From the sequence record PV730302.1: a stretch of 64,000 nt of DNA. One strand, written 5' to 3'. The translations under genes were made by a program, and so were the position numbers. The DNA comes from a phage. The notes beneath the pieces are model-generated. The model was given only the letters and a program-made list of their open reading frames with translations, made no database searches and had not been told where the DNA came from. Below, in pieces: positions 48,433 to 52,940 of this stretch. Position 1 is the first letter of the stretch. Each line of letters opens with the position of its first letter.

Positions 48433-49068
48433 TCAGATAATTGCGTTGGTTACGGTTTTGATAACTTCAGATGATACGTTTTGGAAGTCGATATAAGTAT
48501 TCTTACCACCAGTCTTAATCTTAACATCAAGATTCAAGGAAGTAAACACTTGTTTTTCTTTATCAGTCATATTATAACCGAAGATGCGCATCATGCCATC
48601 ACGACGGACTTCAATTTGACGGATACCGTTGGTACGTTTAGCGAATCGAACTTCAAGGTTGCTACGGTTTTCAGCAATTTCACGAATCTCGATACGGTCT
48701 TCTAATAAAGCTTTAACTTCATCAGCCAGTGTTACCATTTCAGGAGTAACACCACGTGAACTACGCGTTTTACGTTTTTCCAACATCTCTGGAGCATTTT
48801 CAGAAGCGAACAGGTCGGCAGCTTTTTGAACGAGGTCCATTGCTTCACCTGTAGCCACTAAACCGTCACCAGATTTTTCGATGAATCCTTTCTTAATCAA
48901 TACACCGATGTTAGAGTTAACCACTGCTGCACTAAATTGCTCACTCAGGGCTTCACGGACTTCGCCTGAAGTGATGAAGTTATGCTTGATGATATGTACT
49001 AAGATCGAAGCAGTTTTTTCATTCAGGGTGTCTTCAGAAGCTTTGATGATATAAGTAATTTTAGACAT
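48433..49068 (-). CDS. motA: middle transcription activator MotA
   Basis: 211 aa (same as T4 MotA); MSK.TYIIKAS.D.LNEKTA, AEVRE, AVVNSNIGVLIKKG..EKSGDGL, EKRTNGIR, MRIFGY match T4 as recalled. Confidence 0.9.
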   Translation of the reverse strand: MSKITYIIKASEDTLNEKTASILVHIIKHNFITSGEVREALSEQFSAAVVNSNIGVLIKKGFIEKSGDGLVATGEAMDLVQKAADLFASENAPEMLEKRKTRSSRGVTPEMVTLADEVKALLEDRIEIREIAENRSNLEVRFAKRTNGIRQIEVRRDGMMRIFGYNMTDKEKQVFTSLNLDVKIKTGGKNTYIDFQNVSSEVIKTVTNAII

Positions 49069-49172: not shown

Positions 49173-49388
49173 TTAGATTGAAAGTTCTTTAATCTCTGTG
49201 ATTAAAGCAGCTTTCCCTTCACGAAGTTTTTCCAGTTCACGACCATTAGAGCCGCGAACTACTAAGGAATTTATCTCCACTTCTAACCAATTCAGTTTTT
49301 CAACTAGTTCTTTACGTTTAGCATTCATGCCAGGTTTAACTTTACCGAAACGGATGGTAGCGTTTTGGGTATTTTTCATCTTATTCAT
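49173..49388 (-). CDS. hypothetical small basic protein
   Basis: Track ORF begins with GTG at 49406; ATG at 49386-49388 (MNKMKNTQ...) preceded by GGAGAT. Confidence 0.35.
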   Translation of the reverse strand: MNKMKNTQNATIRFGKVKPGMNAKRKELVEKLNWLEVEINSLVVRGSNGRELEKLREGKAALITEIKELSI

Positions 49389-49426
49389 TTTGTATCTCCA
49401 TTTCACTCTGTTGTTTTGATAGGTCT

Positions 49427-49455
49427 ATAATAACACGTTTAAAGCAGATGTATAC
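49427..49455 (-). promoter_or_regulatory. early promoter-like element (GTATAC-N17-TATTAT)
   Basis: Directly downstream of the terminator hairpin at 49475..49496. Confidence 0.4.
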
Positions 49456-49474
49456 CTTTATTTTCACTAAACCC

Positions 49475-49496
49475 AAAAAAGGAGCCCGAAGGCTCC
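49475..49496 (-). terminator. Rho-independent terminator (GGAGCC-UUCG-GGCUCC + U6)
   Basis: Hairpin begins right at the stop of the 34-aa peptide ORF downstream of gene 52; followed by UUUUUU on the minus transcript. Confidence 0.65.
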
Positions 49497-49601
49497 TTAC
49501 TTTTTAAAGTGGGCTGCTATTAAACCTATAGCTAAGCCTGTCGCCAGGCCTAGGATAACAGCAAAGATACAGAGTAACAAGAACTCGACTCCAAGGCTCA
49601 T
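49497..49601 (-). CDS. small hydrophobic peptide, 34 aa (absent from ORF track)
   Basis: MSLGVEFLLLCIFAVILGLATGLAIGLIAAHFKK; ATG overlaps the gene 52 stop (ATGA), suggesting translational coupling; single predicted TM helix. Confidence 0.4.
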   Translation of the reverse strand: MSLGVEFLLLCIFAVILGLATGLAIGLIAAHFKK

Positions 49602-50926
49602 AGAGCCTCCAAATCTTTAATATACTCAGTTACAACATCAGTGGTTTTCCAATATTGATGCTCTTCTTTCTTAGCCTTGGCTTCGAGGGCCAGTTTCTTA
49701 GCTTCATCAGAAGTGATATGGAAAATGTTCATGGCCACTAGTTTATCGGCATATTCGCCATAGACTTTATTACCAGCCAATTCTTCGGTTAAAACCTTAC
49801 GAGTCTTACCTTGGATAACCACAGTTCCATCAATAACATCTTTGATGAATGTGGCTTTAGCCAATGCCAGTTTGAAAGCTTCTTCGGTTTCGATGATTTT
49901 ACCATCAATACGTTTCTGTACAAAGGTCTTACGGACCTCAACGAAATCACGAATCAGTTCAACTGCATCTTCGTAAACCTTAAGTTTACCTTTTTCATTA
50001 ATGACGGTCAGGTTTTGTGAACGACGTTCGATTAATCCGAAATCCTTCATGAGTTTTTCGTGTTTCTTATCTTCATCAGTAGGCAATTCGTATTCTTTAC
50101 GAATCTTAACCTTGAAGCCGAAACCGTTCTCGTCACAGTCATCGTCATATGTGATATACCCTTTTTCTTCCAGAGGGTCTAATACCTTAGCCACATATGT
50201 TTCACGGTCATATTTGTACGGGATTTCCGTGATATGCATTTGGGTTCGGGATGTGAACTTATACGTTCCACGAATCTCATAACTACCTGGTTCAATCTCA
50301 ACAACATCACCGCGGAATTCAGGATAAGCCACTTTAGGTTTGGTTACTCGTTTTTCCTGAAGAACTTGCAATACAGCTTTCTTAACAGAATCAAAACTAT
50401 GAGGAAGAATATTAGTTGCATAACCAGTTGCAATACCGGAAACGCCATTAAGAAGAACAGTAGGAATAATAGGCAGATAAAAAGCCGGTGGCTTATGTTC
50501 GACATCCGCATGAACCGGAGCATATTCTGTGTCCTTATAAACTTTGGCAAAGTTACTTCCAATACGTGCAAAGATATAACGAGAGGCTGCAGCCTTTTGA
50601 ACCAGTCGAGAACCGAAGTTACCCTGACCATCTAACAGTGGATAGTTGTTATTCCACGTGTTAGCCATCAAAGCGCCAGCTTCCTGAGCAGAACCTTCAC
50701 CGTGGTGATATCCAAGGTCGGCCACGCCACCTGCAATAGAAGCTAGTTTGTGGAATTTTTCTTTATTACCACGAGCCATATCAAGACAACGAGCAACTAC
50801 AAAACGTTGTACAGGTTTAAAGCCATCAATCATATTTGGAATGGCTCGGTTTTCGACAGTATACATTGCATAAGCCAATGCTTCGTTGTCGATAATACTT
50901 TTTAAACCACGAGATGTTAATTCCAT
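49598..50926 (-). CDS. 52: DNA topoisomerase II medium subunit gp52
   Basis: 442 aa (same as T4 gp52); GyrA-like N-terminus (ALAYAMYTVENRAIPNMIDGFKPVQR) with active-site Tyr region. Confidence 0.9.
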   Translation of the reverse strand: MELTSRGLKSIIDNEALAYAMYTVENRAIPNMIDGFKPVQRFVVARCLDMARGNKEKFHKLASIAGGVADLGYHHGEGSAQEAGALMANTWNNNYPLLDGQGNFGSRLVQKAAASRYIFARIGSNFAKVYKDTEYAPVHADVEHKPPAFYLPIIPTVLLNGVSGIATGYATNILPHSFDSVKKAVLQVLQEKRVTKPKVAYPEFRGDVVEIEPGSYEIRGTYKFTSRTQMHITEIPYKYDRETYVAKVLDPLEEKGYITYDDDCDENGFGFKVKIRKEYELPTDEDKKHEKLMKDFGLIERRSQNLTVINEKGKLKVYEDAVELIRDFVEVRKTFVQKRIDGKIIETEEAFKLALAKATFIKDVIDGTVVIQGKTRKVLTEELAGNKVYGEYADKLVAMNIFHITSDEAKKLALEAKAKKEEHQYWKTTDVVTEYIKDLEAL

Positions 50927-50930
50927 AATT

Positions 50931-51071
50931 TTACCATACTAGTGAATGAATAGCCATAATGACATCGGAAATAAAAAGCACAACTTGGATAAGTCCGAAC
51001 ATTACTCCATAATACAGCGCTACTAATAAAGCAGCAAGGGCTACCGAGCAGCCCAAGATTTTATTAATCAT
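50931..51071 (-). CDS. small hydrophobic membrane protein, 46 aa
   Basis: Track ORF starts with TTG at 51119; ATG 51069-51071 (MINKILGCSVALAALLVALYYGVMFGLIQVVLFISDV...) overlaps the upstream stop. Confidence 0.35.
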   Translation of the reverse strand: MINKILGCSVALAALLVALYYGVMFGLIQVVLFISDVIMAIHSLVW

Positions 51072-51225
51072 TTTTAATAGTCTTAAGTAAACCGACAAAA
51101 GTAGAAAGAACCCAGCCAATAAGCAGAAAACTTAAGAATATTGGACCAGGGGTCCACACACCTAAAAAGAAGCAAACTGAACAGACTATAGCCATAATAA
51201 GTTCAATAAAAACTACGATAATCAT
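51064..51225 (-). CDS. small hydrophobic membrane protein, 53 aa (absent from ORF track)
   Basis: MIIVVFIELIMAIVCSVCFFLGVWTPGPIFLSFLLIGWVLSTFVGLLKTIKND; two predicted TM segments; preceded by GAGGAAA. Confidence 0.4.
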   Translation of the reverse strand: MIIVVFIELIMAIVCSVCFFLGVWTPGPIFLSFLLIGWVLSTFVGLLKTIKND

Positions 51226-51312
51226 ATTTTCCTCATTAGCGTCCGAAGACGCCTTTAGTTTTAAGATTGTTACGATAGAACTGCATCACATGTTCGTTAT
51301 GGAAATTGCTCA

Positions 51313-51762
51313 TTAGTAATCCTGCAGAATGAATTTAAAGTTATCAGCCAACATACGGTTCATTTCTTCCAGTGTCTGGAGGTCGGAACTATGATTGCGA
51401 GTGAAAGCCATTGCAATTTGACCCTTACCAAAGCCTGTAGTCAGAGGTTTCATCTTAGAAGCCGGTACATAAAGAACTTCATACACAACACCGTTCACTG
51501 CCATGGTGCGAGCTGATTGAGAACGTTTCTTACGAATGTTAGCCACGATACCATCAAGACCTTGAGCCGAACGTTGATTACCGACATAAAAACGAGCCGC
51601 TACGACACGGGAATCAGCTCCGCCTTTAACAAAGAAGTAGAAGCCTGGCTGAGCAGAGATTTCTTTAGAAGGTTTACCATTTTGGTATTCACCATTCTTA
51701 ACATAAGCAACAGTAGTAGCACCAGCAGACAGAACGTTACGGCGAGTCATATAAGTATTCAT
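51313..51762 (-). CDS. ndd: nucleoid disruption protein Ndd
   Basis: 149 aa (T4 Ndd 151 aa); [55 protein letters not shown] match T4 Ndd as recalled. Confidence 0.85.
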
Positions 51763-51811
51763 ATCAATTTCCTCAGTAGATTAATGTTTTGTTATCCAGT
51801 CAACGAGAACC

Positions 51812-51840
51812 ATTATAACATGATTCTCGAGGTTGTAAAC
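51812..51840 (-). promoter_or_regulatory. early promoter (GTTTAC-N17-TATAAT) upstream of ndd
   Basis: Consensus -35/-10 hexamers with 17-nt spacer; -10 flanked by cgagaa/ttctcg inverted repeat. Confidence 0.55.
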
Positions 51841-52208
51841 TATTTTTGTAGCTGTTCTAAAATAAATCCGCTCGTATAAAAGGAAGCGTTATAAACCTTG
51901 TTCAGCGGGTTCAAAGCCTGTCCGTAAGTATCACATAGTTCTTTGATAACATTTTCATAGCTTACATAATAACCACTATGATAATACGGGTCCATACTCA
52001 TACGAAATTTAATGAACCGATAAAAACCTGTTTCTGGGTCTTGAACGAAAACGAAATCAGCACTCATCATAATTTTTGAATCTACGCCAGGAATCATACT
52101 TTGATTGAATGCCACCGATGCATCTTGGAGGCTGAGTTGTTTAAAGAACATTACCTTAGCATTACCAAAAAAGATTTTAGACATGATAATTTCCTTATTC
52201 AGCGTCAA
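51840..52208 (-). CDS. hypothetical protein
   Basis: 122-aa ORF upstream of ndd. Confidence 0.4.
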   Translation of the reverse strand: MTLNKEIIMSKIFFGNAKVMFFKQLSLQDASVAFNQSMIPGVDSKIMMSADFVFVQDPETGFYRFIKFRMSMDPYYHSGYYVSYENVIKELCDTYGQALNPLNKVYNASFYTSGFILEQLQK

Positions 52209-52407
52209 CAGAAATAGCCATCAGTTCATCAACAGTAAGACACTGTACACTGGGTCCTACACAAAAGCGCTTAGTTGAATCATAAAGGTCTGTGGCATTA
52301 ACAGGTTGCAATTCAGTACCAACTTGCAAAGGAGAAATACGAATTAATTGTTGTCCATTATGTAATACAAAGCTCTCACCAACTGCAACATCTTTAAAAA
52401 GTTTCAT
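52195..52407 (-). CDS. hypothetical protein
   Basis: Track ORF begins with TTG at 52449; ATG 52405-52407 (MKLFKDVAV...) preceded by GAGGAAA. An alternative start at ATG 52441-52443 would overlap the peptide ORF. Confidence 0.35.
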   Translation of the reverse strand: MKLFKDVAVGESFVLHNGQQLIRISPLQVGTELQPVNATDLYDSTKRFCVGPSVQCLTVDELMAISVDAE

Positions 52408-52417
52408 AATATTTTCC

Positions 52418-52528
52418 TCAGAAGTTAAAGAATACACGTACATGGTCAATCATAAAAACGATTGGGAAAATGCTCAATACCAAAAATAACACAAACATGT
52501 TCCAAATTGCTTTAAGTAAGTTTTTCAT
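52418..52528 (-). CDS. small hydrophobic peptide, 36 aa (absent from ORF track)
   Basis: MKNLLKAIWNMFVLFLVLSIFPIVFMIDHVRVFFNF; SD GGAG lies inside an 11-bp inverted-repeat arm. Confidence 0.35.
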   Translation of the reverse strand: MKNLLKAIWNMFVLFLVLSIFPIVFMIDHVRVFFNF

Positions 52529-52554
52529 AATCATCTCCATTAGTTGATATGTCT

Positions 52555-52583
52555 ATAATATCATGATTAATGGAGATGTACAC
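52555..52583 (-). promoter_or_regulatory. early promoter-like element (GTGTAC-N17-TATTAT) inside SD-sequestering inverted repeat
   Basis: Arms catctccatta (52532..52542, contains SD) and taatggagatg (52568..52578, in promoter spacer). Confidence 0.45.
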
Positions 52584-52673
52584 TGTTTTATGCCAATTTC
52601 CACAACAATAAACTAAAACATACACAAATCACTGGGATACAGGTCAACCAAATAAGGCACCACATTTTGCTAC

Positions 52674-52940
52674 TCAAAATACTACCTCTTTAATTTCAAT
52701 CAATCCCCTGTACAATGCAGTGCGGAGGTCATAAAGAATATCTATACCGTCGACATTATCCAGTTTACCGTCGATAAGTTTTTGTAAATCTTCCTTTGAT
52801 GCGATTAAGGGACGGAGAAATTTACATTCAGAAAGAGATAACTCTGTAGTAATATCATCACCTTCACCTGATGCATCGTACATAGCGGCAACAACCGTAC
52901 CTGTAACTTTGTGTTTAGCGTAATATAATTTGATATCCAT
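52674..52940 (-). CDS. hypothetical protein
   Basis: Track ORF begins with TTG at 53000; ATG 52938-52940 (MDIKLYYAKHK...) preceded by GAGGAAA. Confidence 0.4.
   Translation of the reverse strand: MDIKLYYAKHKVTGTVVAAMYDASGEGDDITTELSLSECKFLRPLIASKEDLQKLIDGKLDNVDGIDILYDLRTALYRGLIEIKEVVF

Follow-up and report, generated by a model that had tools for sequence, protein, structure and literature searches.

Small membrane-peptide genes around gene 52 and ndd

We analysed 64,000 nucleotides (nt) of phage DNA from sequence record PV730302.1 (the window, meaning this whole stretch), concentrating on a set of very small hydrophobic open reading frames (ORFs) that surround gene 52, which encodes the medium subunit of topoisomerase II, and ndd, which encodes the nucleoid disruption protein. 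The window comes from a Dhakavirus, a T4-type phage similar to JS98, Bp7 and IME08: positions 49300-52700 share 93-96% nucleotide identity with Dhakavirus C6, IME08, 04086, IME341, Bp7 and JS98, and 656 T4-type phage records in total match this interval. An initial annotation of the window had listed a cluster of four such peptides, of 34, 46, 53 and 36 amino acids (aa). All four ORFs were found on the minus strand at the coordinates given there (Table 1), and our analysis supports them as true genes for small membrane peptides in the 52/ndd region of T4. The list was nevertheless incomplete, as it left out stp, which lies inside the span, and a fifth hydrophobic peptide further upstream, a homologue of T4 Ndd.6.

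The genes of the region are all on the minus strand, running from motA (48433-49068) through an ORF of 77 aa, the 34-aa ORF (p34), 52, the 46-aa ORF (52.1), the 53-aa ORF (p53) and stp to ndd, after which come two larger ORFs, the 36-aa ORF (ndd.4; 40 aa in its longer form) and the 29-aa ORF (ndd.6). This is the layout of T4 (motA, motA.1, 52, 52.1, ac, stp, ndd, ndd.1-ndd.6, denB), except that T4 ndd.2, ndd.2a, ndd.3 and ndd.5 have no counterpart in the window. The p34, p53 and 52.1 frames each begin with ATG, the last of these lying within a mechanically called ORF that reaches back to a TTG at 51119 (62 aa), while the 36-aa frame begins at an internal ATG of an ORF whose mechanical start is the ATG at 52540.

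Table 1. Coordinates of the genes and predicted signals of the gene 52-ndd region in the window
Feature	Position	Strand	Evidence or remark
Ndd.6 homologue, 29 aa (TTG) or 25 aa (first ATG)	52588..52677	-	phrog_8851, E = 4e-16
Ndd.4 homologue, single-pass, 36 aa from ATG 52528	52418..52528	-	phrog_3098, E = 1.1e-20
Sigma-70-type promoter-like site	51812..51839	-	TTTACA, 16 nt, TG-TATAAT; 11/12 matches, extended -10; consensus match only
ndd, nucleoid disruption protein, 149 aa	51313..51762	-	first gene of transcription unit
stp homologue, 25 aa	51236..51313	-	Pfam PF08133, E = 2e-20; annotated as stp in KIT01
p53, two-helix hairpin membrane peptide, 53 aa	51064..51225	-	phrog_9347
gp52.1 orthologue, 46 aa	50931..51071	-	Pfam DUF7396 (PF24129), phrog_3595
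gene 52, topoisomerase II medium subunit, 442 aa	49598..50926	-	anchor gene of cluster
p34, single-pass membrane peptide, 34 aa	49497..49601	-	phrog_16377; predicted transmembrane segment 7-28
Intrinsic terminator, GGAGCC-UUCG-GGCUCC + U6	49479..49498	-	terminator scan; RNA fold -19.1 kcal/mol, z = -2.1

The four listed peptides have grand average of hydropathy (GRAVY) values of 1.43-1.85. We scanned them for transmembrane (TM) segments with the Hessa scale (Hessa et al. 2005), and the scan bears out the one or two TM helices per peptide that had been predicted. It gave one segment in p34, two in p53 (residues 2-20 and 29-47), a strong one with a second, marginal one in 52.1, and a single segment in the 36/40-aa Ndd.4 homologue. 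Segments of 17-21 residues with dG < 0 were present in all five peptides, compared with +17 to +24 kcal/mol for hydrophilic Stp as a control. Across the 64 kb there are 11 ATG-initiated ORFs of 25-60 aa with GRAVY >= 1.4, against 2.3 +/- 1.6 in shuffled sequence, and five of the 11 fall within 3.2 kb (49.5-52.7 kb) on the coding strand; p34, 52.1 and p53 are the three most hydrophobic of the listed ORFs of 34-53 aa. The cluster is thus excluded as a chance product of AT-rich DNA.

Coding evidence and organisation of the transcription unit

Related loci (n=56) were collected from GenBank records and IMG/VR contigs, retrieved through gp52. The reading frames are intact in relatives, which is the comparison by which the initial annotation had proposed that they be judged, and the ratio of nonsynonymous to synonymous polymorphism (pN/pS) is well below 1 for each. 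The lowest value, 0.044, is that of p34, for which 12 distinct nucleotide versions encode only four proteins and the variable sites are distributed 4/0/13 over the three codon positions. For the other peptide genes we obtained 0.34 (52.1), 0.42 (p53), 0.32 (ndd.4) and 0.22 (ndd.6), and for comparison 0.20 for gene 52 and 0.13 for stp. The four ORFs, together with the fifth, are genuine protein-coding genes under purifying selection at the amino-acid level.

From ndd to p34 the genes are packed closely, the successive junctions (ndd, stp, p53, 52.1, 52, p34) measuring -1, +10, -8, +4 and -4 nt, so that the ndd stop and the stp start overlap by 1 nt. The reported overlap of the p34 start with the gene 52 stop was confirmed as ATGA at 49598-49601. 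A similar 4-nt ATGA overlap had been described for p53 and 52.1, but this pair overlaps by 8 nt, ATGATTAA, with TAA as the stop codon. Such tight packing is compatible with the translational coupling that had been suggested, and on the evidence of the junctions the genes may well be coupled. Shine-Dalgarno sequences precede p34 (GGAGG, 4 nt upstream), p53 (GAGGA, 5 nt) and the 36-aa start (GGAG, 6 nt). Gene 52 has no recognisable Shine-Dalgarno sequence and its ATG stands 4 nt past the 52.1 stop (TGG TAA AATT ATG; 50926-50935). T4 has the same arrangement, and gene 52 may thus be translated by ribosomes that have terminated on 52.1.

The promoter-like site (51839-51812) stands upstream of ndd. 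At the other end, an intrinsic terminator begins inside the p34 stop codon, and is likely to form the 3' end of an ndd-to-p34 transcription unit. A search of Rfam over 48-54 kb returned zero RNA families, so nothing non-coding appears to be hidden in this interval.

The 46-aa peptide is gp52.1

By sequence comparison, the 46-aa ORF is the orthologue of T4 gp52.1. It matches DUF7396 with 76.1 bits (cut-off 27) over residues 1-46 of 46 and phrog_3595 with E = 5e-25, and it is 91% identical to the T4 protein. The two are of equal length and share the 4-nt spacing to gene 52 and the 8-nt overlap with the preceding gene, with no material difference between them. In the window the 52.1 stop lies 4 nt before the gene 52 ATG, and the gene is directly upstream of gene 52 in 37/37 loci that carry it.

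The protein was found in 898 phage records, yet a HMMER search of 1.84 billion representatives gave only nine clusters at 50% identity, all T4-type-phage-like. Homologues beyond the T4-type phages were found neither among the 13 clusters collected for 52.1 nor among the six for p53, nor in the HMMER search for 52.1. In the alignment of the 13 clusters, which span several genera, 17 columns are invariant and conservation is unevenly distributed, the hydrophobic N-terminal half being variable and the C-terminal half nearly invariant (YYGV.F...QVVLFISD.I....S..W). The conserved residues are Y20, Y21, G22, V23, F25, Q29, V30-D36, I38, S43 and W46, of which Q29, D36 and S43 lie on one helical face (240, 220 and 200 degrees) as a polar stripe. 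This pattern suggests a two-part peptide, in which an anchor of a generic kind is followed by a helix for a specific interaction. AlphaFold2 models the peptide as a single unbroken helix from residue 2 to 45, with a predicted local distance difference test score (pLDDT) of 96.

The N-terminus of gp52 itself differs among near-identical Dhakaviruses. It is 442 aa long in the window, JS98 and T4, and 459 aa, with about 17 extra residues (MADVIDTLFKQ...), in C6, UP19 and three further loci (L007, L023, L056); 52.1 sits 4 nt upstream of gene 52 in both forms. The short form may be the derived one, because more distant phages also carry the long form.

The peptide at the ac position is not an Ac homologue

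In T4, the position between stp and 52.1 is occupied by ac, to which the initial annotation had likened these peptides. For p53 the comparison is apt in position and architecture: its gene, like T4 ac, follows stp and runs 8 nt into 52.1, the protein has 53 aa to the 51 of Ac, and a two-helix hairpin is predicted for both (bioRxiv 10.1101/2025.06.30.662393 for Ac). AlphaFold2 gives p53 a helix-loop-helix fold with helices at 2-21 and 28-52 (pLDDT 74), the first containing an invariant in-membrane glutamate, Glu8. Both proteins end in ...ND because the shared junction forces it.

The two nevertheless belong to different families, p53 to phrog_9347 only and T4 Ac, with JS98 orf256, to phrog_2501. 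We considered p53 as a diverged Ac and rejected this, with an hhalign probability of 0.5%, distinct PHROG families and no BLASTP alignment; p53 did join the Ac family in an iterative hidden Markov model search of a small local set, which we attribute to drift in hydrophobic composition. BLASTP also finds no match between T4 Ac and JS98 orf256, despite their common membership of phrog_2501; pairwise comparison by BLAST is thus uninformative for such peptides and profiles were used instead. Nor can p53 be a diverged ac allele, because JS98 and UP19 carry p53 together with a true Ac-family gene, as does a third locus. The p53 family is narrow, with about 57 close records, and its distant members come from phages of Enterobacter, Klebsiella, Kosakonia, Serratia and Erwinia.

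An Ac-family gene is absent from the 64 kb, as judged by tblastn with five Ac-family members. In some Dhakaviruses, as in JS98 (positions 2387-2790 of loci L003/L006) and UP19 (2307-2456 of L055), the stretch from ndd to p53 contains additional small TM genes that the window lacks: a 49-aa Ac-family gene (phrog_2501) and a gene for a 57-aa peptide (phrog_5941). Since some Dhakaviruses carry an Ac gene and the window does not, Ac is polymorphic within the genus. Deletion of T4 ac leads to acriflavine resistance, and Ac expressed on its own sensitises E. coli to acriflavine and to ampicillin, for which the authors propose a block of AcrAB-TolC (bioRxiv 10.1101/2025.06.30.662393); a 2026 PNAS paper restates this block as an assumption. 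The absence of Ac from the window thus predicts natural acriflavine resistance, unless p53 stands in for Ac.

A further arrangement was seen in vB_EcoM_005 (MK295203.1; 2744-4131 of locus L039), which lacks 52.1 and has p53 fused to a 70-aa product and a gene 52 shortened to 395 aa. This record is only 155 kb long, so the arrangement reflects either a deletion or an assembly defect.

Conserved position and changing sequence on either side of gene 52

On the downstream side of gene 52, p34 combines a glycine zipper, G18xxxG22xxxG26, with HFKK at its C-terminus. At >=90% identity it was found in 55 phage records, of which 54 reach >=95%; all appear to be Dhakavirus-like, and many of the matching records listed leave it unannotated. 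VR25-like phages have a 32-aa relative with G18xxxG22xxxG26 at matching positions. Like T4 MotA.1, p34 is hydrophobic, lies upstream of motA and overlaps the gene 52 stop by ATGA. Unlike MotA.1 (phrog_3487, 49 aa), it belongs to phrog_16377, has 34 aa and one TM helix, and possesses the glycine zipper; tblastn with MotA.1 gave no match in the window.

Another way to view p34 is as one occupant of a conserved slot. Of the 47 loci with a recognisable gene 52, 37 have a hydrophobic ORF, 23-77 aa long, that either overlaps the stop of gene 52 or begins shortly after it. Its ATG precedes the gene 52 end by 10, 4 or 1 nt in 32 of these 37; among the other five, three have a TTG or GTG start and two are placed 25-36 nt beyond gene 52, in one case behind a truncated copy. 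The ORFs in this slot are of at least eight sequence types between which no relationship is detectable. Upstream, 52.1 is constant, and the next positions hold varying combinations of at least four families of small two-helix peptides, these being Ac (phrog_2501), p53 (phrog_9347), the 57-aa peptide (phrog_5941) and a family of 43-44 aa, with other small TM ORFs in the positions beyond 52.1 in more distant T4-type phages. A conserved position with turnover of sequence families fits a plastic accessory region, and fits a specific gp52 interface less well.

The ndd.4 and ndd.6 homologues

The 36-aa peptide matches T4 Ndd.4 in tblastn with 56% identity (E = 9e-13) and is found in 596 phage records. 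The start at 52528 is better supported than the 40-aa alternative: the GGAG and the methionine of 'MKK/MKN' are conserved among relatives, and the phrog_3098 profile begins at residue 5 of the 40-aa form, which is the methionine of the 36-aa form. The upstream ATG (52540) lacks a Shine-Dalgarno sequence, and several phages have ACG or ACT in its place. Existing annotations are divided, with 40 aa in JS98 and KIT01 and 36 aa in MX01, ABTNLsp5 and UP19; T4 Ndd.4 is annotated as 42 aa, compared with 36 aa from the conserved start in the window.

The fifth hydrophobic peptide matches T4 Ndd.6 with 48% identity (tblastn, E = 2e-7). AGAGG lies 7 nt upstream of its TTG, and JS98-type relatives have ATG in place of TTG at this start codon. 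In T4, Ndd.4 and Ndd.6 are encoded in the same region, from ndd to denB, as their homologues in the window.

Neighbouring genes

The stp product, an activator of the host PrrC anticodon nuclease, is non-hydrophobic and encoded in the same operon as p53, 52.1, 52 and p34. Between the p34 terminator and motA, where T4 annotates no gene, the window has an ORF of 77 aa (71 aa from its first ATG; 49173-49406, minus strand) that corresponds to JS98 orf253. Its product is basic and non-hydrophobic, its pN/pS is 0.14 across five relatives, and it has a promoter-like site of its own at 49454-49427.

Function

In the literature searched, 52.1, motA.1 and ndd.4 turn up only in gene lists, and no functional study of them was found. 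In T4, motA.1, 52.1, ac, stp and ndd.2-ndd.6 are transcribed early (PMC9697503, Table S2). The T4 deletion saDelta9, which removes 52.1, ac, stp, ndd, ndd.1-6 and denB, leaves a viable phage with about 50% yield and abolishes phage-induced synthesis of phospholipid, especially phosphatidylglycerol (PG) (PMC6071114).

The best-supported explanation, and one that we consider probable, is that the peptides are micro-proteins of the inner membrane, made early and accessory in role, through which the phage modulates the host envelope. The four ORFs and the fifth are genes of the Dhakavirus early region, arranged in tightly packed operons, one unit comprising ndd-stp-p53-52.1-52-p34-terminator and a separate ndd.6/ndd.4 unit lying upstream, with translation probably coupled. 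Each product, 29-53 aa long and built of one or two helices, would insert into the inner membrane of the host shortly after infection. Two of the listed peptides are orthologues of T4 gp52.1 and Ndd.4, and the other two are members of lineage-specific families at the ac and motA.1 positions. Once in the membrane each would contact a membrane protein of the host, or possibly of the phage, through helix-helix interactions within the bilayer, thereby altering envelope physiology, whether efflux, permeability or phospholipid synthesis, as accessory factors of host takeover that are dispensable in laboratory hosts. Intramembrane contacts are suggested by the polar-striped helix of 52.1, the glycine zipper of p34 and Glu8 of p53, and the mode of action is drawn from these conserved motifs together with Ac and the saDelta9 phenotype, whereas the genes, their family membership, the operon layout and the membrane character of the products come directly from the present analysis. 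AcrZ, a bacterial small membrane regulator that binds AcrB, acts as a single TM helix on a large membrane protein. The phage peptides resemble it in size class and presumed mode of action, but are not known to be related to it in sequence or to have a partner of their own.

Several points weigh against this explanation. Function, target or localisation has been demonstrated for no member of the four families. p53 is not homologous to Ac, so that the Ac phenotype is carried over to it by analogy, and 52.1 is modelled as one 44-residue helix, not a hairpin. The products of T4 motA.1, 52.1, ac, stp and ndd.2-ndd.6 were undetected by mass spectrometry in the T4 proteome study (PMC9697503, Table S2), though tiny hydrophobic peptides are expected to escape it, and the PG-synthesis phenotype belongs to a deletion of about 3.4 kb and about 12 genes, not to any single peptide (PMC6071114).

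The initial annotation had instead suggested superinfection-exclusion or membrane-depolarising factors; spelled out, the latter would be viroporin- or toxin-like peptides whose oligomers form leaky pores. Strong hydrophobicity and the early expression of the T4 counterparts favour this, and on general grounds the Q29/D36/S43 stripe and the GxxxGxxxG of p34 resemble oligomerising or pore-forming TM peptides. Searches of PHROGs, Pfam, NCBIfam and PADLOC, however, returned nothing at E <= 1 for superinfection-exclusion, holin or type I toxin families, the best match of the exclusion/toxin class being a sub-threshold one of the Ndd.6 homologue to TsaT (12.5 bits, cut-off 80). DUF7396 aside, the four peptides matched no functionally annotated family in these databases, and searches of solved structures, NCBIfam and PADLOC gave no matches. 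Superinfection exclusion in T4 is the work of imm and sp, encoded elsewhere in the genome, and is assigned to these instead. Early depolarisation would, moreover, damage the phage's own energy supply, and deletion of the region from T4 costs only about half of the yield (PMC6071114). With no profile match to such families and a dispensable T4 region, the proposal is unsupported, and we regard it as unlikely. Far less credible still is the view that the peptides are functionless, their frames being either chance ORFs or spacers translated only to bring ribosomes to gene 52 and the adjoining genes. Hydrophobic ORFs do arise readily at 39% GC, as several spurious ones in other frames attest, and the 4-nt and overlapping junctions suit translational coupling; but pN/pS lies far under 1, most strikingly in p34, with substitutions mostly at third codon positions, and 52.1 has its invariant columns and is conserved at the amino-acid level across so many phage records. 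This constraint on the amino-acid sequence excludes such a view.

The position of the peptides next to a topoisomerase subunit raises a different possibility, that 52.1 and the downstream peptide hold or regulate the topoisomerase II/replication complex at the inner membrane. Such a tethering role would explain why gene 52 is bracketed by 4-nt junctions, and it agrees with the invariable placement of 52.1 immediately upstream of gene 52, with the hydrophobic ORF at the gene 52 stop in most loci and with the lack of an obvious Shine-Dalgarno sequence for gene 52 itself. In fractionation studies of the 1970s gp39 and gp52 were reportedly recovered in membrane fractions. In the literature that we searched, nothing was found on membrane association of the T4 topoisomerase, and a 2024 structural and biochemical study of the T-even topoisomerase II mentions neither membranes nor small subunits. 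saDelta9 T4, which lacks 52.1, still replicates (PMC6071114), the diversity of at least eight unrelated sequences downstream of gene 52 argues against a specific conserved gp52 interface, and ten more distant T4-type loci have no downstream ORF. We therefore think a tether rather improbable. The same low expectation applies to a broader scheme in which gene 52 is bracketed by coupled micro-membrane proteins, a near-invariant 52.1 and an interchangeable TM peptide, that serve either topoisomerase/replisome-membrane coupling or PG synthesis driven by 52.1. If it were true, the polar-striped helix of 52.1 could be the factor behind the T4-induced PG synthesis that is lost in saDelta9.

Annotation and significance

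The finding of four membrane-peptide genes is correct and already known: although the initial annotation implied novelty, all four are annotated in relatives (all of them in KIT01, and 52.1 and ndd.4 in T4), where the entries call them hypothetical or predicted membrane proteins; 52.1 has the Pfam entry DUF7396 and all four are in PHROG families. As a discovery it thus matters little, though it has some practical value. The modest additions made here are that the peptide at the ac position is not Ac, that the phage lacks an Ac-family gene, that 52528 is the better-supported start of ndd.4 and that an Ndd.6 homologue is present. Public annotation of the region is uneven, with p34, stp and p53 missing from many records and ndd.4 started at two codons; the remark in the initial annotation that three of the four frames are missing or wrongly started in the ORF track agrees with this. 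Several relatives, including Bp7, C6, MX01 and FB, leave stp unannotated, and phage 04086 has its gene 52 broken up into three coding sequences. Some labels mislead: a 52.1 homologue appears as 'sugar ABC transporter permease' in GEP001 and elsewhere has only an 'acridine resistance' feature under the match, and ndd.4 homologues are called 'naphthalene 1,2-dioxygenase' in ph0021 and Kha5h.

What is mildly new is that gene 52 is flanked by TM peptides whose position is conserved and whose sequences are interchangeable. Phage micro-proteins aimed at host membrane machines are an under-studied class, and the peptides flanking gene 52 are defined candidates for the envelope phenotypes of T4, acridine sensitivity and PG synthesis.

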